The notes under the pieces were generated by a model that saw only the letters and a list, made by a program, of their open reading frames with translations, was not told the DNA's origin and did no database searches. 64,000 bases of DNA. Source: Escherichia virus TH47. The first letter of the stretch is position 1. Each line of letters starts with the position of its first letter. The stretch lies in the sequence record MT446416.1. One strand, given 5' to 3'. The translations under genes and the position numbers were made by a program. Shown here piece after piece: positions 27,065 to 56,757 of the stretch.

Positions 27065-27406
27065 TTATTTCCCAGATGCTGGGTATGTTTTAAACATATA
27101 GTGACATTGTACTAAATCATTGAATTTCAATCCAAAATCTTTAGTACCCATCAGTGTGTGATAAAAATAATGTGAAATCTCATTGGTTTCTGCATCTTTA
27201 ATATAGATACCGAACTCGGTACAGCAGAACTGAACGACTTCATTATAACCTACTAATTTCGAAACAACAAGTACTTGATCATAAGAATTTGCATCAAAAC
27301 GAATGATATACATATCTTCAGTTTCAGGATGCACAATCATACCACCACGTGAAATGATTTTGACAAAATTCTCGCTCAAGTACTGAATTGTTGAACTCAT
27401 GTCCAT
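27065..27406 (-). CDS. hypothetical protein, possible divergent FQxST-family member (113 aa)
   Basis: EISHYFYHTLMGTKDFGLKFNDL occupies the position of the family motif. Confidence 0.6.
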   Translation of the reverse strand: MDMSSTIQYLSENFVKIISRGGMIVHPETEDMYIIRFDANSYDQVLVVSKLVGYNEVVQFCCTEFGIYIKDAETNEISHYFYHTLMGTKDFGLKFNDLVQCHYMFKTYPASGK

Positions 27407-27610
27407 CTACGACTCCTTGCGTATAACACGTCCTGTTAAGTGCTCATCTGCACAGAACTTCATTATAAATGCCTTAAGATAGAAGTTGTCTAAGATGCGG
27501 TATGCTTGCTTCTTCATAACAACTTCCTTCTTTTCTACATCTACAATTATATCATGTTCTTCATGAAGTTCCTGGATCATTTTGTAAGTTTGGAAATTTA
27601 GTACGCTCAT
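27407..27610 (-). CDS. hypothetical protein (67 aa)
   Basis: Track start is GTG; ATG at 27610. Overlaps the upstream gene by about 50 nt, so the boundaries are uncertain. Confidence 0.45.
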   Translation of the reverse strand: MSVLNFQTYKMIQELHEEHDIIVDVEKKEVVMKKQAYRILDNFYLKAFIMKFCADEHLTGRVIRKES

Positions 27611-27926
27611 AACCACCTATATCCTCCATTTCCCATAAAATTCCAATCGCAACTGAAAGATCATGGTGAATTTGAAAATAGCCATGTGCAGCAGTGTAGA
27701 TATAACCATGCTTGGTTATTGCATAACCCCACTTCTTACTCTCCGAATGCATCGCACGCTTCAATGCATATGGTGATCGGGGTAGCTTCTCTGGCTCTGG
27801 CTCACGGTTTTCGTTGTAAATCTCTTGTTCGATTCTCAACGCTTTATGATATGAGTATACATGAATTAGACGACAAAGTACAATAGTAATGCAACAAATA
27901 ATTGTAAAATATATCAGATTAATCAT
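27561..27926 (-). CDS. N-terminally anchored membrane protein (121 aa)
   Basis: MINLIYFTIICCITIVLC hydrophobic start. Confidence 0.6.
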   Translation of the reverse strand: MINLIYFTIICCITIVLCRLIHVYSYHKALRIEQEIYNENREPEPEKLPRSPYALKRAMHSESKKWGYAITKHGYIYTAAHGYFQIHHDLSVAIGILWEMEDIGGYERTKFPNLQNDPGTS

Positions 27927-28342
27927 TTCAACCTCTGCATAGAAACGTACTCGTTGATTGCATCAACTAAATCATATCCAGACATCACCGTATCATTGAT
28001 GGTCACATTGTACTTTTTACGAACTTGTGTACCATCTGTTTTACTGTATAGTGATCCATCTGGTTGAATTGTTAAAGTATTGTTTAGAATAAAATCAAAC
28101 ATTTCTTCTTTTGATAGATTTACAGTACGTGTGTCAATATGATCAGTACTTACCAATTCACGAGTATGTTTGACACCGTACTCGGTGTGTTCACCTACAC
28201 TACGATGCAATACCTTTAACTGCTCGGCTGCTGTCTCTTCATCATAGACATGAATAGTTTCAGTACTGTATACAATATCTTGAATATTACCAGTACTTAC
28301 TTCTGTCCATGTATCTTTGAAATGTGTTTTGATTGTTTTCAT
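27923..28342 (-). CDS. hypothetical protein (139 aa)
   Basis: ORF track. Confidence 0.7.
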   Translation of the reverse strand: MKTIKTHFKDTWTEVSTGNIQDIVYSTETIHVYDEETAAEQLKVLHRSVGEHTEYGVKHTRELVSTDHIDTRTVNLSKEEMFDFILNNTLTIQPDGSLYSKTDGTQVRKKYNVTINDTVMSGYDLVDAINEYVSMQRLK

Positions 28343-28353
28343 AGTAGTTCGTA

Positions 28354-28803
28354 TTAGTTATATGAAGTGAATAAATCAATATTTGCATCATCTACACTGA
28401 TTAATTTACCAGTTGAACTAACAAACACAATATTACCACCAGGGGTGAGTTGAACACGCTGGTTTACTGAATATTGATCACTAAGGTTATAATTAGCCCA
28501 TTCAACTACATAACGCTGTTCAACACCATTAGTATCATAAAGATAAACGTGTGTAACATCACGCATTTTTAAACGTTCTAGTAGTGTTGAGTTATCCATG
28601 AAATCAGATGGTGTGTCACTACGTAATGCGATACCGAACTCACCAATACCAGTACGAATAGTTAGACCGTTGGAAAAACGACTACAAAGAGTTTTCTCGT
28701 CAGCAATATGCATCCATAAAACATTCTTTACTTCAATCTCAATGAACTCACAATTTTCAAAAACTAAACCTACTTTAGAAACCTTACCATTAAATTGCAT
28801 CAT
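28354..28803 (-). CDS. hypothetical protein (149 aa)
   Basis: ORF track. Confidence 0.7.
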   Translation of the reverse strand: MMQFNGKVSKVGLVFENCEFIEIEVKNVLWMHIADEKTLCSRFSNGLTIRTGIGEFGIALRSDTPSDFMDNSTLLERLKMRDVTHVYLYDTNGVEQRYVVEWANYNLSDQYSVNQRVQLTPGGNIVFVSSTGKLISVDDANIDLFTSYN

Positions 28804-29206
28804 AAACTCCTGTTTTTTTGTATTTTAAAATAAAATCTCTTGCTGCTTTCATAAGTTTAAATGGAATAGCTAATTCTTTAACAGTACTATCCATGAAATG
28901 TTCTTCTTCTGTATCATAGAATGTTGACATGTAATGGTCACAATCGTCAATTCTATCCCAGAAATCGGATGTACTTGGCTTGTTAGCGATGACAGTTATT
29001 TGTTTATCAGTTTTAGTATAGGAGGCATGTATCGTTAATCCAACATCACCCTTTTCAACACGAATTATAAACGAATTATTAGATGTATAACTCAGCCAAC
29101 AATCTTCACCGAAGTATACAGTACTGTGTTTCTTCTCAAATGTATTACTGTTTTCAAGTACATCAATGACAATATCAACCGCATTGTCACTTAAAATTTT
29201 GACCAT
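28790..29206 (-). CDS. FQxST-motif paralog family member (138 aa)
   Basis: Start re-picked at MVKILSD (GAGGA SD); motif EEEHFMDSTVKELAIP. Confidence 0.7.
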   Translation of the reverse strand: MVKILSDNAVDIVIDVLENSNTFEKKHSTVYFGEDCWLSYTSNNSFIIRVEKGDVGLTIHASYTKTDKQITVIANKPSTSDFWDRIDDCDHYMSTFYDTEEEHFMDSTVKELAIPFKLMKAARDFILKYKKTGVYDAI

Positions 29207-29207
29207 A

Positions 29208-29612
29208 TCATCTTCCTCGTAGGTTTCTGGCAATTTCAAAGATACCATTAATGTTGTCAACTGTCAATCCACACATATCGTATACAGTAGATAGCTGAAA
29301 GAACATATCTTCATCTATAGTAACATGTTCAATCTGCATTTGCAAGAGCACTTCACCAAGAAAATGATCGTATGTTTGTATCTTAAAAGAATCATAATAT
29401 ATATCAATGAAGAATTTTGGCACACCATAGAACGAAACGACAAGTACAATGTTGTCAGAAGCTTCACATGGAACACTCAATGTATTTTTAAATGAACGGT
29501 ATTCAAATGTGTACGGGTCCACGTCACATGTATAGAATGAACTACACCCTTCAGAAAATATTACACCATTTTCAATTAGCATAGATAGTGCATGTGGTGG
29601 AATTTTCAACAT
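29208..29612 (-). CDS. FQxST-motif paralog family member (134 aa)
   Basis: Motif DEDMFFQLSTVYDMCGLT. Confidence 0.7.
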   Translation of the reverse strand: MLKIPPHALSMLIENGVIFSEGCSSFYTCDVDPYTFEYRSFKNTLSVPCEASDNIVLVVSFYGVPKFFIDIYYDSFKIQTYDHFLGEVLLQMQIEHVTIDEDMFFQLSTVYDMCGLTVDNINGIFEIARNLRGR

Positions 29613-29620
29613 TTCAATGT

Positions 29621-30037
29621 TTATCCTTTATTTTGTTGTACGTTATTATGTAGTACACCACAAATATAAAATAATTTACTTAGATTAGAATAACTTATGT
29701 TAGTTAGATCGTATACGAAATTTAGTTGCATATACATATCTTCAGTTAAATCATACAATGATTCGTCCACATCAATTACAATTTTCTTTGTAGTGTCAAT
29801 CTCTACTTTATTAGGCCATACATCAATAACATAATCATCACCATGTTTTTCAGATATGGAAATGAAAACATTATCGCTTTGTTCTAAAAACTCCATGTAT
29901 CCGTTAAGAAATGATCCAGTTATTATCTCATATTCACCAGAATGATACGTTGTTCTGGACTCAAATTCATTTAAAAATATCAAACGATATGTTTGGTTGA
30001 TATACTCATCAATTAAACTAATAACTTCTTTATTCAT
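29621..30037 (-). CDS. FQxST-motif paralog family member (138 aa)
   Basis: Start re-picked at MNKEVISL; motif TEDMYMQLNFVYDLTNIS. Confidence 0.65.
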   Translation of the reverse strand: MNKEVISLIDEYINQTYRLIFLNEFESRTTYHSGEYEIITGSFLNGYMEFLEQSDNVFISISEKHGDDYVIDVWPNKVEIDTTKKIVIDVDESLYDLTEDMYMQLNFVYDLTNISYSNLSKLFYICGVLHNNVQQNKG

Positions 30038-30054
30038 TACATTAATCCCCACAA

Positions 30055-30085
30055 GAAAAAAGGCCGATTCATAATGAATCAGCCT
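30055..30085 (-). terminator. intrinsic terminator overlapping the next promoter
   Basis: Minus RNA AGGCUGAU-(9 nt)-AUCGGCCU plus UUUUUCUU. Confidence 0.6.
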
Positions 30086-30087
30086 TA

Positions 30088-30117
30088 AGTATAACACAGT
30101 AGAAGTAAAAATGTCAA
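30088..30117 (-). promoter_or_regulatory. sigma70-like promoter
   Basis: TTGACA-18 nt-TATACT on the minus strand. Confidence 0.45.
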
Positions 30118-30766: not shown

Positions 30767-31126
30767 TTATGGATTAATCAAACGACACATACCAACTATA
30801 ACATTTATCTCTTCTAATGTCAAGTCACCAATGTCATTTATCATTGAGTACTGGAATAATGACTCTTCTGTGTACTCAAAATCACGTACTGCTATAAAAA
30901 TTGGCTCCTTAGAAACATCTAATGTTATCTTAGCCATTGTACTATATAAATCAAATTGATACAAAATATTAGGAGAAGTATATGCTATGTATATATTATT
31001 ACATTCTGATGGATGTACCAGTGTGAATCCATCATAACATAATATTTTTATGTTAGGATCATCAAAATTACCAGTATAAAGATTCTTACGAACATCTTGC
31101 ATTATACAAGTTATTAAACTAGTCAT
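30767..31126 (-). CDS. FQxST-motif paralog family member (119 aa)
   Basis: Motif TEESLFQYSMINDIGDLTLEEIN. Confidence 0.7.
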   Translation of the reverse strand: MTSLITCIMQDVRKNLYTGNFDDPNIKILCYDGFTLVHPSECNNIYIAYTSPNILYQFDLYSTMAKITLDVSKEPIFIAVRDFEYTEESLFQYSMINDIGDLTLEEINVIVGMCRLINP

Positions 31127-31535
31127 TAAACGGATTTAGAACCTCTTCTGGAATTAATCTTTGAACTTTAAGTATAGCATTAATGTCCTCAAATGTCAAT
31201 CCATTTAGATCGTTTACGAGACAGTACTGAAAGAATTTTTCTTCAGTATCTATATCGTCAAAATTCAATTCAATTCTAGTGTCAATATAATCACTATTTA
31301 CATTAGCAATTCTGATTTTAACTCGTTCAAAATACACATCAAATGAATAAAAATGATCATTGATTTCATAACCAAGAAAAATATTAAAACATTTACTCAA
31401 ATCAGTGGTTTCGTTCAAATCGCCATCATAGCAAAAAACTCTAACTTCACCAATATCTTCTAATTGTACATCATGCAGTGACCATGCGTTGTTTTTTAAT
31501 ACGTAGTTCACCATTTTAACAATGTTGTATTTCAT
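31119..31535 (-). CDS. FQxST-motif paralog family member (138 aa)
   Basis: Motif TEEKFFQYCLVNDLNGLTFEDIN. Confidence 0.7.
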   Translation of the reverse strand: MKYNIVKMVNYVLKNNAWSLHDVQLEDIGEVRVFCYDGDLNETTDLSKCFNIFLGYEINDHFYSFDVYFERVKIRIANVNSDYIDTRIELNFDDIDTEEKFFQYCLVNDLNGLTFEDINAILKVQRLIPEEVLNPFND

Positions 31536-31552: not shown

Positions 31553-31948
31553 TTATTTACGATTCCTTGCGGAGTTCTTGTTCCTCGCTCTGAATGTTGG
31601 TGTCATCGAATGACAATTAGGGCAAAGGATTTTTAAATTCGGTAGGTCATTATTTGTAGCATCACCATCAATGTGCTCAACTTCTGTCAGTACTGCACCA
31701 TCAACTGGGTGACGTTTATCCCATCCACATTCTTCACATGCAGTTCCGCGTGTTTCATGTAGATATCTTCTCACAAATGGGCATAACTGTATGGTAATAC
31801 CTTTATATCCAGGATGTTCACCGTTAAGCCATTTATCAACTTTCTGTTGATATTGTAGCTCTTGTTGACATGCAACACTACAATATTTTGTTTGGCCCTT
31901 TCGAACCAATTCAATTTTACAACATGTACAATAACGTTTTTCTTTCAT
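31553..31948 (-). CDS. HNH endonuclease (131 aa)
   Basis: CTCC..C..C, then CEECGWD...VEHIDGDATNNDLPNLKILCPNCH; start re-picked after a GGAG SD. Confidence 0.75.
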   Translation of the reverse strand: MKEKRYCTCCKIELVRKGQTKYCSVACQQELQYQQKVDKWLNGEHPGYKGITIQLCPFVRRYLHETRGTACEECGWDKRHPVDGAVLTEVEHIDGDATNNDLPNLKILCPNCHSMTPTFRARNKNSARNRK

Positions 31949-32076
31949 ATAGTTCTCCATATATTATGGAGTATTTATATGTAAGAAAAATATCATTTTT
32001 GAGGTCAATATCAGAATTGCACTGATTATTCAGACTTACAAGGTCCGTGTTATACTCTTTTAACTAATCGACCTGA

Positions 32077-32458
<382 letters not shown>

Positions 32459-32477
32459 GCATACTCGAAGTACCTCT

Positions 32478-32583
<106 letters not shown>

Positions 32584-32627
32584 AATTGCTTTATAAGCTA
32601 CTGAATCGGGAATCACAACCTCCCCAT

Positions 32628-33145
<518 letters not shown>

Positions 33146-33154
33146 ATTTGTTTC

Positions 33155-33340
33155 CTATGAAATGAATGTAGCGTTAATTCCCATTATAAATGCAAATATA
33201 CCAAACAATATCAGACCGATTGGTACAAAGATCATAGATCTATTTCCATGTTTCGATAAAAATCGTTCAAGTATAATTAAACGTATTGATATAGGAACCA
33301 TTATAATAATATACAATATTGAAAGAATTAAAAGTTGCAT
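33155..33340 (-). CDS. small two-pass membrane protein (61 aa)
   Basis: ORF track; hydrophobic. Confidence 0.5.
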   Translation of the reverse strand: MQLLILSILYIIIMVPISIRLIILERFLSKHGNRSMIFVPIGLILFGIFAFIMGINATFIS

Positions 33341-33368
33341 TTTAATTTCCTATTATCATTTCGTTTTG

Positions 33369-33441
33369 CGACTCTGGAGGAACTCGAATCCCCAACCAAT
33401 TAATTAACAGTTAATCGCACCACCAATTGTGCTACAGAGTC
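33369..33441 (-). tRNA. tRNA-Asn (anticodon GTT), 73 nt, CCA not encoded
   Basis: Hand-folded cloverleaf GACTCTG-TA-GCAC-AATTGGTG-GTGC-G-ATTAA-CTGTTAA-TTAAT-TGGTT-GGGGA-TTCGAGT-TCCTC-CAGAGTC-G. Confidence 0.85.
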
Positions 33442-33449
33442 ATAATTAT

Positions 33450-34154
33450 TTACAAGCCATGTCTTTTCAAAAATCTAGCAAACACATTTTTGGAAGCACC
33501 ATAGCTTTCATATATACTAACTTTTTTCTCACCATTAGTCAAACGTTTTTTTATATCTTCTATGTTATCTTCTAAACGTTTTACGTTTGCAAATTTCTTA
33601 GATGGTATGTTATTTTTGGTTCTATAATTCAGTACTGAACCTGAACTGATATTCATTATTTTAGCAATTTCAGTATCTAACAAACCTTGGTTAATATATT
33701 CTTTTACCTTTTCATAATCAACTGATGTTTCACCACCCTTTGTATTTGACGGAGGCTTGACCATTTTTTGTGAACACTCAACACTACAATATTTTGTATA
33801 TGATTTCACTTTAGTATGTCTACGGGAAAATTCCGTATTACAACAAGCACATACAAATGAATCATATCGTGCTTGTACTCCATTCTTATGTGTTTTATAA
33901 CGATGTTCATCAACATGAAGTATTTGTAAATTAGACAAATCATCATTTGTGAAATCATTATCAATGTGGTCTGCTTCTTCAGACTCAGTTAAATATCTAC
34001 CTTCTTGTACTGCTAATAGATATCTGGCATATTGAGTACTGCTTCTATCAGTTGGAGAATTATAAAGTATTACAGTTCTTCTACCTTCAGGGTTTATCTG
34101 TATATACCCATTCTTCCAATCATTACTATATGGATATTCTAATTTTATTTTCAT
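33450..34154 (-). CDS. HNH homing endonuclease with C-terminal HTH-like region (234 aa)
   Basis: EADHIDNDFTNDDLSNLQILHVDEHRYKTH; starts 19 nt after the tRNA-Met 3' end and stops 8 nt before tRNA-Asn. Confidence 0.75.
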   Translation of the reverse strand: MKIKLEYPYSNDWKNGYIQINPEGRRTVILYNSPTDRSSTQYARYLLAVQEGRYLTESEEADHIDNDFTNDDLSNLQILHVDEHRYKTHKNGVQARYDSFVCACCNTEFSRRHTKVKSYTKYCSVECSQKMVKPPSNTKGGETSVDYEKVKEYINQGLLDTEIAKIMNISSGSVLNYRTKNNIPSKKFANVKRLEDNIEDIKKRLTNGEKKVSIYESYGASKNVFARFLKRHGL

Positions 34155-34173
34155 TATTTTATTTCAAAGTTTG

Positions 34174-34478
34174 TGAGCCATCTGTGAGTCGAACACAGTA
34201 CCTAACGATTCGTATAATCTATAGTTTTCACTATAGTACGGACTATATCATCATCCCATAGGGATGCCGGACGCTAATGATGTATTACACAGTAAGATCG
34301 TACTGTACCATCTAGTCTCTGCACCTTCCCAATACGCTTATTGGGCTTGGCTCAGGATTGTCATCACCATTACGTGTTAAGATTTCCCTGAATTCATCCA
34401 GTTTTTCAATCACCATTACTGATGAAAGTCACCATTGTCGATGAGTCGTTTGCTCTAACCACCGTGAGCTAATGGCCC
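34174..34478 (-). tRNA. tRNA-Met/Ile2-type (anticodon CAT) interrupted by a 230-nt intron
   Basis: 5' exon (34478-34441) GGGCCAT-TA-GCTC-ACGGTGGTTA-GAGC-A-AACGA-CTCAT. 3' exon (34210-34174) AA-TCGTT-AGGTA-CTGTG-TTCGACT-CACAG-ATGGCTC-A. The joined exons give a canonical cloverleaf. Confidence 0.85.
34211..34440 (-). mobile_element. group I intron (IC3-like) in the anticodon loop of tRNA-Met
   Basis: Follows U36 and ends in G. Contains CAGGGAAA, CAATCCTGAGCCAAGCC, GGGAAGGTGCAGAGACTAGATGG and TAGTCCG, which match the core of bacterial tRNA group I introns as I remember them. No ORF inside. Confidence 0.8.
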
Positions 34479-34507
34479 GATTTGGGTGTTCCTAGTGTTT
34501 CATTATT

Positions 34508-34721
<214 letters not shown>

Positions 34722-34733
34722 AAATTAATTATA

Positions 34734-35126
<393 letters not shown>

Positions 35127-35483
35127 ATCACCAACTTTAATTAAAAAAATGGATGGTTACGCTTTTAAACGCCGCTGTTAATTCAGCTTTATAACCACCC
35201 GTTTTAACTTGCCTTTCGGCTACCTTGACGTGGGGGCGTACAGGCTACTAAAAGCAACTTCTGTAAACATATTTCCACACCTTACCCTTTTAAATAAAAG
35301 TCCATCCGGTTTTCCAGTTTGGTGAAGGACTGTCACCTCTAGTTTAAACCTGCTAGTCAAGTAATAATTGCCTATCGTCCAATTATCAAACCCGTCTAGG
35401 TTAACATTCACCACTTCCTAGAGTGCCAGAGATCTTGTTCTGGATTTCATCGACGTAACTTACACCATATACGTCTGATTGTG
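35127..35483 (-). ncRNA. ORF-free structured leader or candidate ncRNA (~355 nt)
   Basis: Starts just after promoter 35490-35518. About 45% G+C in a counted line. Hairpins include GCC-GAAA-GGC and GGTGA-cagtcct-TCACC. Ends ..CCAUCCAUUUUUUU 20 nt before the next ATG. Track ORF 35220-35414 is implausible. Confidence 0.3.
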
Positions 35484-35489
35484 GAATTC

Positions 35490-35514
35490 ATTATATCAGT
35501 ACTGAACTATTTAG

Positions 35515-35518
<4 letters not shown>
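35490..35518 (-). promoter_or_regulatory. sigma70-like promoter (extended -10)
   Basis: TTGACT-aaatagttcagtactga-TATAAT; the -35 overlaps the stop of 35515-35871. Confidence 0.6.
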
Positions 35519-35893
<375 letters not shown>

Positions 35894-35898
35894 TATAC

Positions 35899-36101
<203 letters not shown>

Positions 36102-36105
<4 letters not shown>

Positions 36106-36266
36106 ATTCGTACCAGTAGTTCAATTAAGTACATTTCATATGCTGGATCGTTGATAAGTTTATCATACAGATGTGACTCTGAAATGAATTCCCAATGATA
36201 TTTTCGCCATTTACCAAAACCTGCATATCTAAAATTAATGTCATTCATCCATTCTTCATGTGTCAT
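36102..36266 (-). CDS. 54-aa MTHEEW-family micro-protein, copy B
   Basis: MTHEEWMNDINFRYAGFGKWRKYHWEFISESHLYDKLINDPAYEMYLIELLVRI; ATGA overlaps on both sides. Confidence 0.6.
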
Positions 36267-36427
36267 AATCGTACCATTATTTCAATAAAGAACCACGGAT
36301 ATACTTCATGGTTTATAAGTTTATCGTATTCTGCTGGGTCTGATATAATTTCCCAATGATATTTTCGCCAACTACCTATACCCGAATATCTAACATTAAT
36401 GTCATCCATCCATTCTTCATGTGTCAT
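36263..36427 (-). CDS. 54-aa MTHEEW-family micro-protein, copy A
   Basis: MTHEEWMDDINVRYSGIGSWRKYHWEIISDPAEYDKLINHEVYPWFFIEIMVRL. Confidence 0.6.
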   Translation of the reverse strand: MTHEEWMDDINVRYSGIGSWRKYHWEIISDPAEYDKLINHEVYPWFFIEIMVRL

Positions 36428-36465
36428 GGTTTTTAACCTTTAATTAAAATTGTCAAAAATGTATT

Positions 36466-37004
<539 letters not shown>

Positions 37005-37024
37005 ATCCTTAATATTATATTTTA

Positions 37025-37096
37025 TAAAGGGCCGGAGAATCGAACTCCGATTGGATTCTTAGAAGGAATCTGTTTTATCCATTAAACTAGCCCCTC
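37025..37096 (-). tRNA. tRNA-Arg (anticodon TCT), 72 nt
   Basis: GAGGGGC-TA-GTTT-AATGGATA-AAAC-A-GATTC-CTTCTAA-GAATC-CAAT-CGGAG-TTCGATT-CTCCG-GCCCTTT-A; the acceptor stem has G1-U72 and G3-U70 wobbles. Confidence 0.75.
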
Positions 37097-37106
37097 AGTA
37101 CTAATA

Positions 37107-37117
37107 ATTATATCACA
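37107..37117 (-). promoter_or_regulatory. extended -10 promoter element TGTGATATAAT upstream of tRNA-Arg
   Basis: The -10 ends 10 nt before the tRNA 5' end. Confidence 0.5.
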
Positions 37118-37156
37118 TCTTTGTGGTCTGTCCCAGAAATTGTGATATAAAAGTTG

Positions 37157-37375
37157 TTATTCTTGTGGTTTAGTTACACCAACACCAATAATGCTTTTAA
37201 TATCAATATGGATATTAGCAAGTTCATTACTGTCAAACGGGTTAGTTTCAGTTACAACAACAGTGGCATCATTAACTAAAACTACTGAACCTTTTACGCG
37301 GTATCCCTGAAGGAGTACTTGAACATTGTCACCAGCGTTTAATGAGTTAATAACTTCTAATAGGGTAGATTCCAT
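37157..37375 (-). CDS. possible Sm/Hfq-like small protein (72 aa)
   Basis: NVQVLLQGYRVKGSVVLVNDATVVVTE fits an Sm1-like pattern (h.h.L..G..h.G.h..hD...hhh); IHIDIKSIIGVGV is Sm2-like; motif-level only. Confidence 0.6.
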   Translation of the reverse strand: MESTLLEVINSLNAGDNVQVLLQGYRVKGSVVLVNDATVVVTETNPFDSNELANIHIDIKSIIGVGVTKPQE

Positions 37376-37391
37376 TTTATATTCCTTACGG

Positions 37392-37583
37392 TTAACTATT
37401 TTTACGTTTTTCTGATTCTGGTACAGTTTTCATTTCACCAATACATAGTTCCATGATGAGTACACCTTTATCATTATAACGTACTACATCTTCAATGTCA
37501 AAATGTCTCGCACTATGAACAACTTCAATACATGCATCATCGGGATATGATTCCAATAATGCTACAAGTTCTGCTTTTGTCAT
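37392..37583 (-). CDS. hypothetical protein (63 aa), related to 32664-32879
   Basis: ORF track; promoter 37614-37641 upstream. Confidence 0.55.
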   Translation of the reverse strand: MTKAELVALLESYPDDACIEVVHSARHFDIEDVVRYNDKGVLIMELCIGEMKTVPESEKRKNS

Positions 37584-37613
37584 TTGCCATCTCTCTGTTA
37601 TTTATCTTTAGTA

Positions 37614-37641
37614 ATTATAGCATAAAAACACATCATGTCAA
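37614..37641 (-). promoter_or_regulatory. sigma70-like promoter
   Basis: TTGACA-tgatgtgtttttatgc-TATAAT on the minus strand. Confidence 0.6.
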
Positions 37642-37712
37642 ATGTTTTATCTTTATTTTAAGTGATACACAGTACTGAAAATATAATAAAGAAAAATTTC
37701 CAGTACTGAGTT

Positions 37713-39006: not shown

Positions 39007-39188
39007 CTTATTTTATCCATAACTGCTATACTAAAATATTTACCAAAATCATCACAATTGATAATGTTGTTATAGTACTCAATTGGGTTACGCAATGATA
39101 TATACAATTCAAGCTTAAAATAGTATATATCTGCTGCATTTATATTATAGTGTAGATTAAACCACTCATCAAATGTCTTAGGCTGCAT
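39003..39188 (-). CDS. hypothetical protein (61 aa)
   Basis: ORF track. Confidence 0.5.
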   Translation of the reverse strand: MQPKTFDEWFNLHYNINAADIYYFKLELYISLRNPIEYYNNIINCDDFGKYFSIAVMDKIR

Positions 39189-40067: not shown

Positions 40068-40068
40068 A

Positions 40069-46401: not shown

Positions 46402-46940
46402 TTACGGTCCTTTGAAAAGTTCAGTTTAAAAGTTTTACCAAATTCCATTGTAGCTTTACCCAGATTGTTAATATTTTCTTTCAACATTTCTTGCATCTTC
46501 CTAATACTTTCATTCCAGGCTTCTTCTTCTTTGCGGAGGATTGGTCGCAATCGTTCCTGAATATCGTTAAAACGTGTATTGAGTTCAACCAATGATTCAT
46601 ATGTGAAATCTTTCATATCGATGATAGTACTACGTTGAAAGAATTCTTCTTCGGATAAATTACTCAAAATGATTTTATCACTACCAATAGATAATGTCAA
46701 TTCATCATCTTGATTTTTTTTAATTACAATACGTACAGGTGATTTTATAGTAATGTGAACATCATGATTATTAAAAGTTTCAGTTTTGTTTGACGTTCTG
46801 AATTGTAGTCTTCCGGTTAGTGCGTGTACTGGCATTGGTTTCTTTTTACCAGTAATAACATCTTCCCACGAATCAAGGATATTATTAATAATTTTAACAT
46901 AAGGAACTGTCATATATGCACCTATGAAAAATCCACGCAT
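46398..46940 (-). CDS. FQxST-motif paralog family member (up to 180 aa)
   Basis: Motif LSEEEFFQRSTIIDMKDFT; the start may instead be at MTVPYVK (46913). Confidence 0.7.
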   Translation of the reverse strand: MRGFFIGAYMTVPYVKIINNILDSWEDVITGKKKPMPVHALTGRLQFRTSNKTETFNNHDVHITIKSPVRIVIKKNQDDELTLSIGSDKIILSNLSEEEFFQRSTIIDMKDFTYESLVELNTRFNDIQERLRPILRKEEEAWNESIRKMQEMLKENINNLGKATMEFGKTFKLNFSKDRK

Positions 46941-47437: not shown

Positions 47438-49327
47438 TCAAAAGAATATCTCTCGTAGTAAGTGTGATATAACTGGCATAGTCCATCCATTCCCAAGCAT
47501 TTTATATGCTTGTGTCTTACTAGACACTTTAAAGAAATCTTCAGGAACGCCCTGTAATTTACAACATTCTACTACACTTAAGTGTCTATAGTCAATATTT
47601 CTTTTACCATTCTCTAATAGATATTGACGATTAATCATTGGGTCACGAAACACCAATTGTCGTCTTGATTTATTAAAGTACTGGTTGCAATCACCACCCT
47701 TAAAATAGTTAGCATCTATACAGTACGAAGCGGTCCTGTCAGTGTACCAACCATCTTCAATGATATCTTGAAGTTTAGGGGCATTTGATAATGCAGGTGG
47801 TATAAAAAGCTTATCAGTACTGCACCAGTAGTATCTCTGCCTGAAGTGAGGCGTATAATGCTGGGAATTTATCAGTACTGGTGTCATCTCAAGAACACTA
47901 TTAATATATTGCTTGAAATCTTCTTTCATTTTAACATTCTCGAACAGTACTTTCAAGTCTGGATTGAGACTTTTTATGTGCTCATAAATGTCAACCATTG
48001 TATGAAACAACATTCCACGCGGATCATTTATTCCACCCTGTTTACCTGCAACAGACCAAGATTGACAATTGTGCACAACTATGTTATTTGCGGTATATGT
48101 ATTGTCAACGGCAACTTCAAAATTATATACGGTTTTCCATTCACCTGTCGAAATACTTGTTTTTATACCTTTAACCCATGAATAATTTTCGTCATAAAAA
48201 GCTTCCTCTTTTTTGGGTTTGTCTTTTTTATATGATAAAACATAATACGGTTTTTGGTTTACAATTCGTCCCTCAATAACTTTAGTTTTTTCTGGTTCGG
48301 TAAGGCTTATGTTGGAATGTCTTCCGTAAACGTTCATTATTAATTGTTGGACACCTAATACACAGTCTATTGATGTTGTAGTGAATTTATAACAATTACT
48401 ATCAATATGACCATCTGCATCAAAATATCCATCAAGGAATGCTTTTTGGTTCTGTACACATTCATTGAATAAATCGGGATGAACTTTCTTATTAGATGCA
48501 CCTTTACCCATTTGTTCACAGAATTCAACGAGTTCTTTTGAACATATATAAAATTTATATGATGTTCTTTCTTTGACATAATTATATTTCATGTTCATAC
48601 CTTCAAAACACGAAATCAATTCATCAAATTCATCATGTGCACAACAGATGAAAACTCTATACTGGTAACTATTCTTTCTATTATTACGCTTTACTTTATA
48701 AGTCCATCCGTCACCCATAAAGCGTCCCATAAAATACCAGAATTTTTCATCTTTTGATGATTTACTAGATTCAATTGATTTAACATTACAAAGAAAATGT
48801 TCAGATGTTAATTCGTGTGCCTCAACCCATTCAGGTTCAGTGAAGGATCGTTCAGATTGTCTAATTCTGTTATTCCAGCTAGACGACATTTTTCTAGCAT
48901 AAAATGGATGATTATCAGTGCATTCAATTGGGATATGACCTTGACCAGTTATAATACGGGTTGGTGCTTTTTTAACACCTGTACTCAATACTGGATGATA
49001 TTGTCCAGTATGTGTTAGTACCATGTCACCAACTTGAATGTCTTTAATGTCTTTATGACCTTTATCGGTCATTATCATTGTTCCTTCCGTGAAGCACGGG
49101 AACCCTCCCATGAGAAGGTCAATTTTATCCCACTCAATATCCCATTCTCTCCATTTAGTTACATCACCCAATTGGGTGATATCAGGAAAGTTAGCTTGAG
49201 ATTCAGCTATTGCGTACTTGTCAATTTCGGATGAATAATATTTTTCAACAGGGATACCAGCATCTTTTAATGCCATGTATCCCACACTCATCCCATTAAA
49301 AAGAGATAGTACTCGGATAGGTTTCAT
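47438..49327 (-). CDS. DNA (cytosine-5) methyltransferase precursor containing an intein (629 aa; 286 aa after splicing)
   Basis: Motif I LSLFNGMSVG; motif IV GGFP|C..intein..HN|CQSWSVAG; ENV (VLFENVKM); QRYYW; ECCKLQGVPEDF; MLGNGWTMPV. Confidence 0.9.
   Translation of the reverse strand: MKPIRVLSLFNGMSVGYMALKDAGIPVEKYYSSEIDKYAIAESQANFPDITQLGDVTKWREWDIEWDKIDLLMGGFPCFTEGTMIMTDKGHKDIKDIQVGDMVLTHTGQYHPVLSTGVKKAPTRIITGQGHIPIECTDNHPFYARKMSSSWNNRIRQSERSFTEPEWVEAHELTSEHFLCNVKSIESSKSSKDEKFWYFMGRFMGDGWTYKVKRNNRKNSYQYRVFICCAHDEFDELISCFEGMNMKYNYVKERTSYKFYICSKELVEFCEQMGKGASNKKVHPDLFNECVQNQKAFLDGYFDADGHIDSNCYKFTTTSIDCVLGVQQLIMNVYGRHSNISLTEPEKTKVIEGRIVNQKPYYVLSYKKDKPKKEEAFYDENYSWVKGIKTSISTGEWKTVYNFEVAVDNTYTANNIVVHNCQSWSVAGKQGGINDPRGMLFHTMVDIYEHIKSLNPDLKVLFENVKMKEDFKQYINSVLEMTPVLINSQHYTPHFRQRYYWCSTDKLFIPPALSNAPKLQDIIEDGWYTDRTASYCIDANYFKGGDCNQYFNKSRRQLVFRDPMINRQYLLENGKRNIDYRHLSVVECCKLQGVPEDFFKVSSKTQAYKMLGNGWTMPVISHLLREIFF
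48068..49096 (-). mobile_element. intein with LAGLIDADG homing-endonuclease domain (343 aa, residues C78-N420)
   Basis: Starts CFTEGTMIMT; block B VLTHTGQYHP; LAGLIDADG motifs FWYFMGRFMGDGW and KAFLDGYFDADGH; ends NNIVVHN followed by the +1 Cys of the PCQ motif. Confidence 0.88.
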
Positions 49328-49984: not shown

Positions 49985-50440
49985 TTAATTGAACTCGATT
50001 TCTGGATAATGATTATAGAACATCTCACGTACTGCGTCAAGCTGTTCTTTAAATTTCTCAATGTCATCAAGAGTTAGTACAGTATCACTAACAGTACTCA
50101 ACTGAAAAAGTGTCTCTTCAGTACTGTTTTCTGATAAATCAAATGTACATGATGAATCATCTGATATAATATTATCACATATTTCAAATGTGTCAATATG
50201 AACATCATTGAGTAGATCACCACTATAATCATTATATATGAACACAAAAATGTATGATGGTTTTTTTATCTCAGTTTCTGACTCATAGGCTACCAAATCA
50301 TATGTAACGTAACATTTAAAGTCAGGTGAATCGTATTCCATAGATACAATTCCTATATCACGATATTGATTCGTTTCACTGATTAAATCCGGTATAGGTG
50401 TAATACCAAGTAAATGAAAAAACTGTCCTGGATTTAGCAT
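49985..50440 (-). CDS. FQxST-motif paralog family member (151 aa)
   Basis: Motif STEETLFQLSTVSDTVLT. Confidence 0.7.
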   Translation of the reverse strand: MLNPGQFFHLLGITPIPDLISETNQYRDIGIVSMEYDSPDFKCYVTYDLVAYESETEIKKPSYIFVFIYNDYSGDLLNDVHIDTFEICDNIISDDSSCTFDLSENSTEETLFQLSTVSDTVLTLDDIEKFKEQLDAVREMFYNHYPEIEFN

Positions 50441-50889
50441 TTGATTACCTTCGGGTTTTGCTCTGTGATATCAAACATAGATAGAACGAAATCATTTAGC
50501 TTTTCAACACAATTGATTATAGTGCTTAAATCAGAATAACTAACTGTTAAATTTTTAACAAGAGATTCCTGAAAGTATCCTTCTTCAGTTGAGCAATAAC
50601 TCACATTTGAGATAGTCTCATAATGTATATCTTTGCTTGTTTTACATGTTATAATTTCTATTATATCCGATGTTGTGTTATATAATAATATAAATGTTGT
50701 TGTTCGTGAATTCTTATTGTAAAATGCGAGTTCTGTGCTGTCATATGTTTTCTCAATAAGAACATTGTACTCTTCCGAAAATGATGTGGAAATTCTAATT
50801 ATCTCTTCTGGATCAGGAACATAAGAGCCATCAAATTTACAAGACAATGCAATTTCAAAATGATTTTTTATTTCATCAATTTTCATCAT
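50434..50889 (-). CDS. FQxST-motif paralog family member (151 aa)
   Basis: Motif STEEGYFQESLVKNLTVS; ATGA overlap with the upstream stop. Confidence 0.7.
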   Translation of the reverse strand: MMKIDEIKNHFEIALSCKFDGSYVPDPEEIIRISTSFSEEYNVLIEKTYDSTELAFYNKNSRTTTFILLYNTTSDIIEIITCKTSKDIHYETISNVSYCSTEEGYFQESLVKNLTVSYSDLSTIINCVEKLNDFVLSMFDITEQNPKVIKC

Positions 50890-51260
50890 AGCTCACCATT
50901 TAATTTGCTATTTACATATTCTAATGCTTTTTTAGCAATGCCAATTTCGGTAACTCCTATTACATTTTTCTCGATTAACGACAATTGAAATAGTTCATCT
51001 TCATCAATATCAATACTATGGGTTCTTGACCAATAATAATTGAAGTCATATGCATATCGTATTGTATTTTCTTTAATATCAAGTACCAATATGACCATAC
51101 CATCGTGTAGGTATGTCAGTGTTTTTCCGTATATATTAAAAATTAACCTATCTGGTGTACCCAATGGAAGATGAATTATATTTTGTGTAGTTCCAACAAT
51201 AACAAAATCATTATCTATATTTTTATTCAAGTCACCTAGAATGTCATATATAGTAGTCAT
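50886..51260 (-). CDS. FQxST-motif paralog family member (124 aa)
   Basis: Start re-picked at MTTIYDIL; motif DEDELFQLSLIEKNVIGVT. Confidence 0.7.
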   Translation of the reverse strand: MTTIYDILGDLNKNIDNDFVIVGTTQNIIHLPLGTPDRLIFNIYGKTLTYLHDGMVILVLDIKENTIRYAYDFNYYWSRTHSIDIDEDELFQLSLIEKNVIGVTEIGIAKKALEYVNSKLNGEL

Positions 51261-51261
51261 G

Positions 51262-51666
51262 TTAATCTTGACCCTCAGCATTTCTGATGATTCGCATTAC
51301 TTCTCTGGATAGGTCGAATACTTTTTTATAGTACTCAAATGTAACTGAACCAAAATCATTAACAGTACTATCCATGAAGAACGATTCTTCGGTGCAATAC
51401 ACACCTGTAATTGAAACATGCTCTTGATGGAATTTAGCATCTTTCCAGTAACGGAATTCGAAAATAAATTGCCCGTCATGACCAACCCTACAACACTCGG
51501 CACGGTCACTGTCTACACAGCTAATCACAATATCCCTCTCGGAGTCATACCAGATATTTCCAATATTTGTTTCAATAACTGCATAATCAATTTTTGTAGA
51601 ATTGGGAATTAAACCTTTTTTTACCAGTACTAGACTGGTATTATCAATATCCAGAAAACTTACCAT
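51262..51666 (-). CDS. FQxST-motif paralog family member (134 aa)
   Basis: Motif CTEESFFMDSTVNDFGSVT. Confidence 0.7.
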   Translation of the reverse strand: MVSFLDIDNTSLVLVKKGLIPNSTKIDYAVIETNIGNIWYDSERDIVISCVDSDRAECCRVGHDGQFIFEFRYWKDAKFHQEHVSITGVYCTEESFFMDSTVNDFGSVTFEYYKKVFDLSREVMRIIRNAEGQD

Positions 51667-51667: not shown

Positions 51668-52078
51668 TCAACTCCCCACTATTACTGTGTTTTTAATTTC
51701 TAACAATTCACTATACATCTTCTTCAATTGTACAATATCTTCATATAAAATACCACCCATATCATCAATCAAAGAACGTTGAAATAGTGATTCATCTGAC
51801 TGTATTGTGTCCAAATCAGAAATTTTCAAAACTGTATCTGGGTTTAGTGTGTTTACAATAAGTTTGTTTGTGTATGGTACGTATGTGATCTTGATATTCA
51901 TTTCTGAATCAAGGGCATACAACCTCAAAACTGACAAATCACCACAAAGTTGGATTTTTGGTTCATCAAACTCATCAGACCACCACATAGTACTAGTCAT
52001 ATAATTGACGTGTTGGTTCAAATGTGATATATCCAAATCGAAATAATATTTTAGTTCATTGTGTAAATCTAAACTCAT
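51668..52078 (-). CDS. FQxST-motif paralog family member (136 aa)
   Basis: Motif QSDESLFQRSLIDDMGGIL. Confidence 0.7.
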   Translation of the reverse strand: MSLDLHNELKYYFDLDISHLNQHVNYMTSTMWWSDEFDEPKIQLCGDLSVLRLYALDSEMNIKITYVPYTNKLIVNTLNPDTVLKISDLDTIQSDESLFQRSLIDDMGGILYEDIVQLKKMYSELLEIKNTVIVGS

Positions 52079-52133: not shown

Positions 52134-52529
52134 TCAAGATGTGAATTGCTTATACCAGTGATACAATTCTTTTAATTCTTCAGTACTGAATAGAACATCT
52201 TCAATCGTTGTTTGTTGGAAGTGGTAATCTTCGTTTAAGTACATTGAAATATTTTTATATACTTTTCGATTACATTTTCCAAGAAACGATGTTCTTTTGG
52301 ATGTGTATTCAATAAATGTTAACTTATCTAATTCTATATCCAATGACAATTTAGTACAGTATTCAGTATCATCTACGTACATAAGTTTATTTGAATAACA
52401 ATCAACTGTGATATATTCTTTATGTGAGAATTGATATATACCATTAAATTTTTTACCATTTGTACTTCTGAATTTTTCAAGGTAATAAGATAGTGGTTTA
52501 GATATTGTACTACCAATAGTATTATTCAT
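52134..52529 (-). CDS. FQxST-motif paralog family member (131 aa)
   Basis: Motif LNEDYHFQQTTIEDVLFST. Confidence 0.7.
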   Translation of the reverse strand: MNNTIGSTISKPLSYYLEKFRSTNGKKFNGIYQFSHKEYITVDCYSNKLMYVDDTEYCTKLSLDIELDKLTFIEYTSKRTSFLGKCNRKVYKNISMYLNEDYHFQQTTIEDVLFSTEELKELYHWYKQFTS

Positions 52530-53296: not shown

Positions 53297-53725
53297 TTAT
53301 AGGGAAGCTTCGTATTCAGCTACAATGTCAACCATCTCATTGACAAAGTTGATGTGGTCATGAGTTACTGTGCGGAAATCATAAACCAGTGATTGTTGGA
53401 AGAATACGTCTTCAGCCAGATTACCTTCAAAGTTCAGGTCGATGTTTTCTTCATCGTTGGTCGGAGCAACTTTGATATTTAGTTGATTTTCATCAACAAC
53501 CAATTTCACAACACAACCCAATGCAATCGCCAGTACATAAGCAGGTTTCTTCGCCGCTTCAGAACGGAATGGAGCACGTAGAGCACAAATGGTGCTGCTA
53601 ATCTCATCATTCTGTTCTTTATATTTAACGTTAATCATCAGTTCTTCAATTTTGACGCTCTCGATTACACGACCAGTTTCAGCAGCGAAGAAAGAGTGGT
53701 TACGGATAGTTTGTTCGATATTCAT
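53297..53725 (-). CDS. FQxST-motif paralog family member (142 aa)
   Basis: Motif LAEDVFFQQSLVYDFRTVT. Confidence 0.7.
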   Translation of the reverse strand: MNIEQTIRNHSFFAAETGRVIESVKIEELMINVKYKEQNDEISSTICALRAPFRSEAAKKPAYVLAIALGCVVKLVVDENQLNIKVAPTNDEENIDLNFEGNLAEDVFFQQSLVYDFRTVTHDHINFVNEMVDIVAEYEASL

Positions 53726-54838: not shown

Positions 54839-55071
54839 TTTATTTCCTTAATGTAGGCAAATGGTAAAAATACAACCTCTACACCAGGGAATGTTGTTGC
54901 AAGTGCATCAACTATAGACTTGTTTTTGTTACATTGCCAAACTTTTGTAACTTTGTGCTGAAATACTTTACCATCTTTTACTAGCCAATACATTTGCATC
55001 TTAACAGTACAGTTATCAGATGGTATTAGTAAATCCTCTATATCATATGAATTAAAGATTCTCTCGTTCAT
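54835..55071 (-). CDS. hypothetical protein (78 aa)
   Basis: ORF track. Confidence 0.55.
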   Translation of the reverse strand: MNERIFNSYDIEDLLIPSDNCTVKMQMYWLVKDGKVFQHKVTKVWQCNKNKSIVDALATTFPGVEVVFLPFAYIKEIK

Positions 55072-55330
55072 ACAATCTCCTAGTGAAAAAAGCCAGATTC
55101 TTTCTTATATACTCGGCGACACAATCAGTAGTCTGTGTATTTGTGAATGCAACAACTTCATTCGATACACCATTCCCATTACACAATGGACAAATCCCCA
55201 TATACTTAGGTGTTGGAACTGTATCTAGTTTATATTTCCCTGAAGATATCATGTATTGTTGTGGTAATACATCCAAAGAAATAATATAATCATCATCGAA
55301 TTGCTTACAACATACCCAACATTTACTCAT
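55052..55330 (-). CDS. zinc-ribbon protein (92 aa)
   Basis: CWVCC...CPLCNGNG. Confidence 0.6.
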   Translation of the reverse strand: MSKCWVCCKQFDDDYIISLDVLPQQYMISSGKYKLDTVPTPKYMGICPLCNGNGVSNEVVAFTNTQTTDCVAEYIRKNLAFFTRRLYERENL

Positions 55331-55814
55331 TGTGGTTCTCCTTCAAAACAATTCTTATATCTTCGAATGTTTGAACAAACCAGTCATGCTCATCAGATAC
55401 ATCAACCACCTTCCCACCATAAACATAGTAATGATAGAAGGGTAACTTACTTTTCCTCAATCGTTCAGCAAGTTCTGGGTTTTGAAATATCTTAGCACAT
55501 ATTGCATCCTGGATACAAGAAATGCATTCGGGTGTCATTTCAATACGGTCGTGCATATACTTGTTCGCCGCTGCTTTTGCAGCAGCACCCGACACTTTTC
55601 TAAGATCATCATGTTTCTGGCCTGTTAAAAACCAAAAATAAAAAGTTTCTACCGATGGGAACCAACCGTATGGTTCTAAGGTAAAACTATGTGACGAAAA
55701 GTTAGATAGATCCCTACCTAACTTAGTTTTAGCTTTACTATAGATATTAATGTGTCTGTATCCGTCATCAGTAGGGTCAATATAGTTAAATGACTCTTCA
55801 GGAAATTCAAACAT
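55323..55814 (-). CDS. hypothetical protein (163 aa)
   Basis: ORF track. Confidence 0.7.
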   Translation of the reverse strand: MFEFPEESFNYIDPTDDGYRHINIYSKAKTKLGRDLSNFSSHSFTLEPYGWFPSVETFYFWFLTGQKHDDLRKVSGAAAKAAANKYMHDRIEMTPECISCIQDAICAKIFQNPELAERLRKSKLPFYHYYVYGGKVVDVSDEHDWFVQTFEDIRIVLKENHNE

Positions 55815-55816
55815 AA

Positions 55817-56170
55817 TTACTCTTCTTCACCAGATGGTGTACCACGCAGTTTATCAAAATCAACCCAAATACCATGCTGGTTTTTGAAGCGACATTTCTC
55901 ATAGTACCAGCTATAGTCGGTTTCAACACCCTGAGAAATTGAACGAACACTACAGTCATACATATTGTATAAATGTGTACGTACAATGAATGTTCCTATA
56001 AGAAGAACAAACACAACAATCCCAGTACAGATCTTTGGATGATCCATAATTAGGTCCAACACAGAACTGGTTTCAGTACTATCAATTTTACTACGACCGA
56101 TAGCAACAACTTTCAGTACTGCTAATGATACCAGTAATGAAATAACAAGAACACTCAAATAAATTAGCAT
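55817..56170 (-). CDS. two-pass membrane protein (117 aa)
   Basis: ORF track; hydrophobic segments at residues 1-23 and ~45-65. Confidence 0.65.
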   Translation of the reverse strand: MLIYLSVLVISLLVSLAVLKVVAIGRSKIDSTETSSVLDLIMDHPKICTGIVVFVLLIGTFIVRTHLYNMYDCSVRSISQGVETDYSWYYEKCRFKNQHGIWVDFDKLRGTPSGEEE

Positions 56171-56172
56171 AT

Positions 56173-56757
56173 TTAGACTCCTACCCCAAAACGTAAAAGG
56201 ATGTTATTAACAAACACAAAATCAAATGGAGACTTTGGTTCAGATACCGAGTACTGAAAAGTTTCAGTGGCAAAATTTTCCCTATTATGCCATGTTGATG
56301 AATCGATTAGTAATTGTTTATCACCAATTGACGTTGAATGTAATGGGACGTGTGCTGATGAATTTATAGAATACGCATTTAGTTTTCCTTGTTCATCAAA
56401 TGTAACACAAAGGTAATATCTCTTCTTAACATCAGGATAACGCTCTTTAATATACGAATATATTGATTCATTCAAATCATCATCATCCCTTGTCTTAGCA
56501 CCGAGAACTTGAGCAAAAGACAAACTACGTTTCGGTTGGATCGTTCCTGGTCTTTTTAGAATGAATTCTTTTGTTAAGTAAAAGTTATTGTGTTTTACCT
56601 CAATATTAACAGTTTTAAAGTTTGTGATTTTATCATATACGTTCCTAAAAACTGTTATATCCCATGAACTAATTTCTTGCATCGTTACCGTAACTAGTTC
56701 TTCTAGTTCTTGGATAAATGGCAAATCGTCTTGATCAAATCTAATCACAGTTTTCAT
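56173..56757 (-). CDS. hypothetical protein, possible divergent FQxST-family member (194 aa)
   Basis: FATETFQYSVSEPKSPFDF near the C-terminus. Confidence 0.65.
   Translation of the reverse strand: MKTVIRFDQDDLPFIQELEELVTVTMQEISSWDITVFRNVYDKITNFKTVNIEVKHNNFYLTKEFILKRPGTIQPKRSLSFAQVLGAKTRDDDDLNESIYSYIKERYPDVKKRYYLCVTFDEQGKLNAYSINSSAHVPLHSTSIGDKQLLIDSSTWHNRENFATETFQYSVSEPKSPFDFVFVNNILLRFGVGV

Follow-up and report, generated by a model that had tools for sequence, protein, structure and literature searches.

A large family of small paralogous proteins sharing a conserved motif in Asteriusvirus and related jumbo phages

Paralogous genes in the 64,000-nucleotide window

The stretch of DNA analysed here, referred to as the window, comprises 64,000 nucleotides of Escherichia virus TH47 (sequence record MT446416.1) and carries a family of small paralogous proteins that share a short motif towards the C-terminus. 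The window is 96% identical to the Escherichia phages BF17, Turkey3 and Ecwhy_1 and 82-87% identical to 121Q, PBECO4, UE-S1 and phAPEC6, which places it in the Asteriusvirus type of Rak2-like jumbo myoviruses, with genomes of about 350-385 kb. Its guanine-cytosine content is 31-39%, and nearly all genes of the region are located on the minus strand, where the family genes are interspersed with four transfer RNA (tRNA) genes, HNH/NUMOD4 homing endonucleases and an intein-containing cytosine methyltransferase. By sequence criteria the window contains 20 robust members of the family, one probable member (39178-39582) and one possible member (40336-40728), which are listed in Table 1. The family covers ~9 kb of the window, and the 8-9 kb estimated in the initial annotation, an earlier note made from the letters of this DNA, was correct.

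To define the family, the 258 window open reading frames (ORFs) of at least 50 amino acids (aa) were searched with the motif regular expression [DE][DEG]..[FY][QM]..[TLMF][VIL]. This revealed 18 matching ORFs, all 18 on the minus (coding) strand; residue-shuffled ORFs gave a mean of 0.16 matches (maximum 3 across 1000 shuffles), and the reversed ORF sequences gave 0. The motif occupies a single column position in the multiple alignment of the window members, starting 32-54 residues before the C-terminus in most of them and up to 84 in a few. Because the seeds had been chosen by the motif, and a first full-length profile was overfitted (the seeds matched themselves), we used leave-one-out hidden Markov models of the 60-residue C-terminal block around the motif, searched against the same 258 ORFs, together with independent profiles. 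Each left-out seed was regained, with expectation values (E) of 1e-3 to 2e-11, and the ORFs 29621-30097 and 7840-8412, which the regular expression had missed, were regained in every run. The former was the top non-seed match in most runs and was also linked to 29208-29612 by phmmer (E 9e-7). A profile of 123 sequences, consisting of 12 window members and 111 distant representatives, matched the eight window members that it did not include with E 3e-14 to 2e-5, and its matches extend over almost the full length of the proteins.

The paralogs of the window are 12-30% identical in pairwise comparisons, and the phmmer links among them are weak, except for that between 30767-31126 and its nearest in-window paralog, 31119-31535 (E 1e-14). 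The logo of 124 representatives is very sharp in the motif region, where its consensus is [ST]-E-E-x-[YF]-F-[QM]-x-S-[TL]-[VIL]-x-D, with h-x-x-[LI]-T-x-E-[DE] after it. The motif residues E, E, F, Q and S are each present in 83-98% of these representatives, as compared with a mean column identity of ~10%.

The chance control, the profile recovery and the homologous position of the motif confirm that this is a genuine paralogous family, as the initial annotation had proposed, and the logo bears out the pattern h-x-x-(L/V)-(T/S)-x-x-(D/E)-(I/L) that it described downstream of the motif. Eighteen of the 20 ORFs that it counted are robust by the leave-one-out models or the 123-sequence profile, whereas 39178-39582 is probable and 40336-40728 only possible. 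The shared position of the motif also stood, but not the distance of 25-40 residues from the C-terminus given for it. The family is not confined to positions 27065-56757 either, since 13813-14328 and 7840-8412 are robust members outside this range. Two ORFs suggested as distant members, 27065-27406 (profile E 3, hhalign probability 2.5%) and 56173-56757 (profile E 9.5, hhalign probability 0.3%), were dropped, as they were non-significant in a smaller profile, in the 123-sequence profile and in hhalign.

Some members deserve individual comments. The probable member 39178-39582 had an E of 0.33 with the smaller profile, and its ortholog in Escherichia phage EC22.5-2 was matched at E 0.006. The ORF 40336-40728 was kept as a possible degenerate member because it aligned with 34734-35126 across the motif region (E 1e-4). 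As for the start codons, the true start of 28790-29260 is probably an ATG that gives 152 aa, and the cluster representative P0115 begins with MVSLKLPE. The first 10 bases of the GTG-started ORF 29621-30097 fall within a promoter at 30117-30088, which favours Met21 as the probable real start of the gene. The cluster representative P0119, related to 39579-40127, likewise starts at Met21 (162 aa). Three members, 46398-46940, 39579-40127 and 7840-8412, are basic (isoelectric point, pI, 9.0-9.4), and the first two have long Lys/Arg/Glu-rich C-terminal extensions beyond the family domain; their sequences suggest a sub-class with an added function. In addition, the ORF 11407-11772 (minus strand, 121 aa) was matched by the 123-sequence profile at E 0.008, over profile positions 23-81 only (N-terminal part and sheet) and with no motif, and could be a truncated or very divergent relative or a chance match.

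Table 1. Family members and neighbouring features of the window, with the E-values of the leave-one-out models and of the 123-sequence profile; members marked (o) are not in that profile.
Feature	Position	Strand	Length (aa)	Motif block	Leave-one-out E	Profile E	Remarks
Member	7840-8412	-	190	NEEEYFQESIV	2e-6 to 7e-4	2e-5 (o)	pI 9.1 (basic)
Member	13813-14328	-	171	TEESVFQQSLI	1.1e-7	1.3e-11	regular expression match
Member	28790-29260	-	156	TEEEHFMDSTV	6.6e-6	6e-10	TTG start
Member	29208-29612	-	134	DEDMFFQLSTV	1.1e-9	2.5e-20	
Member	29621-30097	-	158	TEDMYMQLNFV (variant)	2e-7 to 1e-4	2.3e-12	GTG start; no regular expression match
Member	30767-31126	-	119	TEESLFQYSMI	matched	8e-18	sigma-70 promoter 45 nt upstream
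Member	31119-31535	-	138	TEEKFFQYCLV	matched	matched	regular expression match
Member	34734-35126	-	130	DEEDEFQKRTV (degenerate)	2e-4	3.7e-7 (o)	
Member	35515-35871	-	118	TEEEYFQMSTV	7.7e-7	6e-16	promoter 32 nt upstream
Probable divergent member	39178-39582	-	134	VEEEFQYNLL (reduced)		4.7e-4	profile positions 20-123, almost the full length
Member	39579-40127	-	182	TEEERFMLSTI	1.2e-3	1.4e-10	basic helical C-terminal extension
Possible degenerate member	40336-40728	-	130	SEEDEFQKNTT		0.19-0.28 (profiles)	hhalign probability 5%
Member	45123-45566	-	147	LEEMYFQQLTV	3.8e-4	3e-14 (o)	
Member	45946-46401	-	151	NDEYVFQQSTV	1.1e-5	4e-12	
Member	46398-46940	-	180	SEEEFFQRSTI	1.2e-8	1e-12 (o)	long basic helical C-terminal tail
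Member	49985-50440	-	151	TEETLFQLSTV	matched	1.5e-16	regular expression match; most acidic member (net charge -24)
Member	50434-50889	-	151	TEEGYFQESLV	matched	4e-18	regular expression match
Member	50886-51281	-	131	DEDELFQLSLI	4.3e-5	1e-9	
Member	51262-51666	-	134	TEESFFMDSTV	7e-11	3e-18	
Member	51668-52078	-	136	SDESLFQRSLI			high-confidence structure model; promoter 31 nt upstream
Member	52134-52529	-	131	NEDYHFQQTTI	3.4e-7	5e-14	
Member	53297-53725	-	142	AEDVFFQQSLV	3.9e-8	3e-13	
tRNA island	31553-38687	-					Thr 32001, Asn 33368, Ser 34632, Arg 37024, interleaved with homing endonucleases
HNH and HNH_3/NUMOD4 homing endonucleases	31553-31960, 36466-36990, 37713-38687	-					
HNH-like ORF	33450-34154	-					
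C5 cytosine DNA methyltransferase	47438-49327	-	629				split by intein (Hint and LAGLIDADG domains)

Family size, distribution and evolution

A profile search of 1.84 billion representative proteins returned 131 representative clusters at E<=1e-3, all of 62-195 aa. Two complete unannotated genomes were then assembled, and all their ORFs were scanned with the family profile (E<=0.01 for EC22.5-2). Escherichia phage EC22.5-2 (352 kb, Asteriusvirus) has 59 matches among 1283 ORFs, and the shuffled control has 0. In the part that matches the window, nineteen of these genes occupy 303-324 kb, and two more are found at 337 and 342 kb; 33 form a second family block at 57-85 kb, and five others are scattered. 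The RaK2-like Klebsiella phage OU509535.1 (347.5 kb) has 42 matches with the same two-block layout. The size of 20-22 paralogs given in the initial annotation is thus an underestimate, as the window carries about a third of the family according to the EC22.5-2 scan. The tandem arrangement is also seen in a 7.4 kb metagenomic contig that encodes a distant representative, in which 10 of the 18 genes are members. In Rak2/121Q-type jumbo phages the family amounts to 40-60 copies per genome, roughly 10% of the about 550 genes.

A word-indexed homolog search returned almost exclusively Asteriusvirus orthologs, and tblastn of the distant representatives against annotated phages matched only Erwinia phage Hallingskeid. 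Structure comparison with viral models by Foldseek detected the same fold in proteins of RaK2, GAP32, CBB and Eneladusvirus fHe-Yen9-03/04. The family is specific to Rak2/121Q-type jumbo phages, namely Asteriusvirus, the RaK2-like Klebsiella phages, GAP32, CBB, Eneladusvirus and uncultured relatives.

An intact 1:1 ortholog in UE-S1, in phAPEC6 or in both exists for every window paralog included in the ortholog comparison (which excluded 7840-8412 and 13813-14328, located outside the compared region, and 40336-40728). The median ratio of nonsynonymous to synonymous substitution rates (dN/dS, omega) is 0.24 for the members versus 0.13 in 106 non-family comparisons, and the median amino acid identity to the orthologs is 73.5% versus 84.6% for the neighbours. 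The members are under purifying selection, yet they evolve faster than the genes around them. The comparison between Asteriusvirus and the RaK2-like genome uncovered 16 reciprocal-best pairs, which mostly occupy corresponding blocks of the two genomes. More recent events were also detected: at 68123-70447 of EC22.5-2, in the second block, five adjacent members share the motif W-[DG]-[ST]-E-E-Y-Y-F-Q-[QN] and are 35-58% identical, and this identity indicates that the tandem subfamily at 68-70 kb is younger and resulted from recent duplication. The history of the family is one of birth-and-death evolution of functional genes and not of decay.

Predicted fold and candidate functions

The AlphaFold2 model of 31119-31535, based on an alignment of paralogs and close orthologs, had a predicted local distance difference test score (pLDDT) of 75 and consists of a helix, six strands and further helices. 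With the 123-sequence alignment, 51668-52078 was modelled at pLDDT 94.3 and a predicted template modelling score (pTM) of 0.85. This model contains a helix at residues 5-13, seven strands between residues 21 and 87, a helix at 95-102 that holds the motif and a long helix at 112-135; the motif block has pLDDT 96-97. Its whole-protein Foldseek alignment with a RaK2 protein gave a template modelling (TM) score of 0.86. According to these models, each member is predicted to be a single compact domain in which helices flank one seven-stranded antiparallel sheet, and the members are soluble, single-domain and usually acidic proteins of 115-190 aa. The variable N-domain on a constant C-terminal module described in the initial annotation is not what we found, given the one compact domain of the models, the near-full-length profile matches and the TM score over the whole protein. 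The proposed comparison of selection in the two halves does not separate them either, the difference being modest (omega 0.29 before the motif versus 0.19 from the motif onward).

In the model, the motif block forms the short helix and the turn that follows it. Typical of helix capping is a structural signature in which [ST]-E-E stands at the N-terminus of a helix, with aromatic and aliphatic residues after it. From capping rules and helix periodicity, the Ser/Thr and the two Glu of the motif would stabilise the helix by capping its N-terminus, and the motif helix would be anchored on the sheet by the invariant Phe together with the Leu/Thr-Val/Ile after it. The motif may thus be mainly a fold determinant, and it may also provide a shared interaction surface.

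Database comparisons agree with the initial annotation, which could not assign the family to any known one. Pfam gave no significant match for the 10 members tested and no recurrent match among the 123 aligned members, no Pfam family matching more than one of the 123 at E<=0.1. The members matched no family of NCBIfam, and 10 of them matched 0 families of PADLOC (anti-phage defence components) at E<=0.01; against PDB sequences the profile found no match save one at chance level (E 1.1). Matches to SUKH_6 (E 0.021), CdiI_4 (E 0.025) and NGO_1070-like (E 0.021) were sub-threshold, with one member each of the 123. Polymorphic-toxin immunity families (SUKH, CdiI and similar) were rejected, as no match exceeded the curated threshold and the single sub-threshold matches fit noise. 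Each window member matches its own PHROG with E 1e-43 to 1e-105, and weak cross-matches link these PHROGs. The records (phrog_17453, 24941, 23322, 24321, 21500, 27549, 13866 and others) are all annotated as of unknown function and kept as separate families, and they contain neither the superfamily relationship nor the fold or copy number. A separate observation is that one of the 123 aligned representatives, not among the ten longest, matches Pfam RecQ-1-like_HTH (E 3.7e-12).

The charge, the promoters and the virion content of the region bear on the function of the family. The median pI of the members is 4.7, versus 6.4 for the other window proteins, and their net charge goes down to -24. Considering as sigma-70 promoters the sites that match at least 11 of 12 consensus positions, the 64 kb window has 37 on the coding (minus) strand and 0 on the other strand, with ~2.3 expected, and several of them lie 30-50 nt upstream of family genes. 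Genome-wide in EC22.5-2, 97 of the 108 near-consensus sites are on the coding strand and 11 on the other, and the block matching the window is promoter-rich. Such a promoter array is a hallmark of a region transcribed early by the host RNA polymerase, and on this basis the whole 64 kb looks like an early region. The phAPEC6 orthologs of the family are located within gp082c-gp134c, and the virion proteome of that phage includes gp077 and gp078c, then gp149c as the next protein, and none of gp079c-gp148c (PMC7247149); the members are therefore absent from it. By position and size, gp077 and gp078c correspond to the window ORFs 25027-26184 (plus strand) and 26229-27053 (minus strand), and this part of the genome encodes no other protein of the virion proteome. 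Among the long ORFs in 26-58 kb, 25027-26184 is also the only one that seems to be a genuine gene of the plus strand.

We propose, with a probability that we place at about 0.45, that the family is an early-expressed, non-virion repertoire of diversified binders or inhibitors built on one scaffold, for host takeover or anti-defence. The members would be made early from host-type sigma-70 promoters and would then stay in the infected cell, where each paralog, on a shared scaffold, would recognise a host or defence-system target of its own through the variable sheet and loops. The family and its size, the predicted fold, the absence from the virion, the promoter context and the selection pattern were observed, and the context fits the arsenal for host interaction suggested in the initial annotation: the proteins are acidic, outside the virion, placed in a promoter array and fast evolving. 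From these data we infer the function itself. A more far-reaching version is doubtful in our view: roughly 10% of the genes would encode one p32-like acidic helix-sheet-helix binder scaffold, each of the 40-60 paralogs would neutralise a different host factor or defence system, and the family would be a phage counterpart of the poxvirus and African swine fever virus (ASFV) immune-evasion families and the largest single-domain expansion reported in any phage.

Several points weigh against this proposal. Early expression, binding and any target of the members are inferences, and the early timing is read from the promoter consensus; the literature search found no relevant Asteriusvirus transcriptome and no link of the family to anti-defence. 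The second family block of EC22.5-2 (57-85 kb) is much poorer in sigma-70 promoters, so that the case for early expression is weaker there. Four window members are neutral or basic. The absence from the virion comes from one proteome of 62 proteins, in which low-copy small proteins could be missed. Finally, the burial of the motif residues is deduced from capping rules and periodicity, and the near-invariant E-E, Q and S could instead mark a catalytic or ligand site.

Among the other explanations, the one that survives best, though we consider it unlikely, is that the proteins are adaptors, which was the first idea of the initial annotation. The short helix and the start of the long helix would dock one common partner, which might be a host protease, the RNA polymerase, the clamp or a phage factor, and the variable sheet would recruit a paralog-specific target. 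Poxvirus ankyrin/F-box-like proteins work as such adaptors. Only one point separates this model from the repertoire of binders, namely that the motif would serve for the docking of a common partner. It would account for a motif far more conserved than the rest of the protein, for the stronger constraint on the C-terminal part and for near-invariant polar residues (E, E, Q and S) that exceed the needs of helix packing alone. However, the protein is predicted to be one small domain and not two modules, [ST]-E-E with aromatic and aliphatic residues is the usual helix-capping signature, and no candidate partner was found.

Less probable still is a distant homology with the p32/gC1qBP/MAM33 acidic proteins, whose fold (PDB 7te3, 3qv0) is one of the closest known systems. 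The family would then consist of oligomeric (trimeric) acidic multi-ligand binders or chaperones, or of mimics of nucleic acids that would sequester basic host proteins. The two families have in common their strong acidity and, in our model, the order of elements (a helix, then seven antiparallel strands, a short helix and a long one), but the sequence identity is 3-6%. Moreover, MAM33 (PF02330) had no match for 10 members at E<=1, it is not among the 25 listed of the 40 Pfam families matched by a single member, and there is no PDB sequence match.

Two last explanations are very improbable. The initial annotation had suggested, as a speculative alternative, that the motif is a shared processing site of the type cleaved after FQ by the tobacco etch virus (TEV) or 3C proteases; a prohead-protease site in proteins packaged in the head was also considered. 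The consensus of the TEV protease is E-x-x-Y-x-Q, which E-E-x-Y-F-Q superficially resembles, and small, variable, clustered proteins recall the internal proteins of T4. Against cleavage, the motif is predicted to lie in a helix with pLDDT above 90 inside a compact domain, a poor substrate; the residue after Q in the 124 representatives is mostly Q, L, E or Y and not Ser/Gly, the Ser being two positions past Q; and conservation and helical structure continue downstream of it. The cleavage site of T4-type head proteases, after Glu in (L/I)-x-E, is unlike the motif; the annotated head protease is described as both core scaffold and protease of the prohead; and packaging does not agree with the lack of any ortholog in the phAPEC6 virion proteome. 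That the genes are decaying or selfish tandem duplicates without individual function would fit the arrays adjoining homing endonucleases, the extreme paralog divergence and the few degenerate motifs (39178-39582 and 40336-40728), but not the intact 1:1 orthologs with omega about 0.24, the 16 cross-genus pairs that were kept or the confident fold obtained from the family alignment, which points to conserved contacts.

Related systems and neighbouring genes

Large lytic phages are known to encode small early host-takeover proteins, such as the T4 early ORFs behind strong sigma-70-type promoters and the host-takeover module of SPO1. Like the present family, these are small, mostly acidic, non-virion proteins, clustered behind strong host-type promoters and annotated as hypothetical; unlike it, they are sets of unrelated proteins, whereas here 40-60 genes per genome share one fold and motif. 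A second parallel is provided by the ASFV MGF360/505 and the poxvirus ankyrin/PRANC multigene families, which have roles in host range and immune evasion. They, too, consist of tens of diverged tandem paralogs that evolve by birth and death and combine a variable body with a conserved C-terminal element; their folds and hosts, however, are unrelated to those of the phage family. In addition, the phage proteins each have a single domain, and no link between them and a host degradation machine is known.

Large viruses are already known to show lineage-specific expansions of small proteins. The zinc-ribbon expansion of Bacillus phage G, with about 35 copies, was called "unprecedented" in a comparative study of 224 jumbo phages (Iyer et al. 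2021, PMC7824862), which does not mention the present family. Both are expansions of one small domain in a jumbo phage; the domain and the phage group are different, and with 59 and 42 copies the present family exceeds the zinc-ribbon expansion in size and extends over several genera. The genome papers on CBB, RaK2, UE-S1 and Sharanji do not describe the family, at most calling some genes paralogous: 22 ORFs in CBB and "nearly 10%" of the gene products in RaK2. Thus, neither the superfamily nor its fold, motif and copy number (40-60 per genome) appear to have been described in the searched literature.

In these 350 kb phages, no function has been assigned to about 83% of the genes (PMC7247149). 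Recognition of the family turns about 50 "hypothetical proteins" per genome into one tractable question, and with the motif-based profile, metagenomic jumbo-phage contigs can be annotated at once. Should the members prove to inhibit host or defence factors, they would be a rich source of new inhibitors; the proposed function, if true, would also help to explain the large gene number of jumbo phages and would bear on the host range of therapy phages.

The stretch of tRNA and homing endonuclease genes (Table 1) is variable among related phages, as the megablast coverage falls there. The intein-containing methyltransferase varies as well: its ortholog in phAPEC6, gp123c, is only 861 nt long and therefore has no intein, and the UE-S1 version is 1881 nt.

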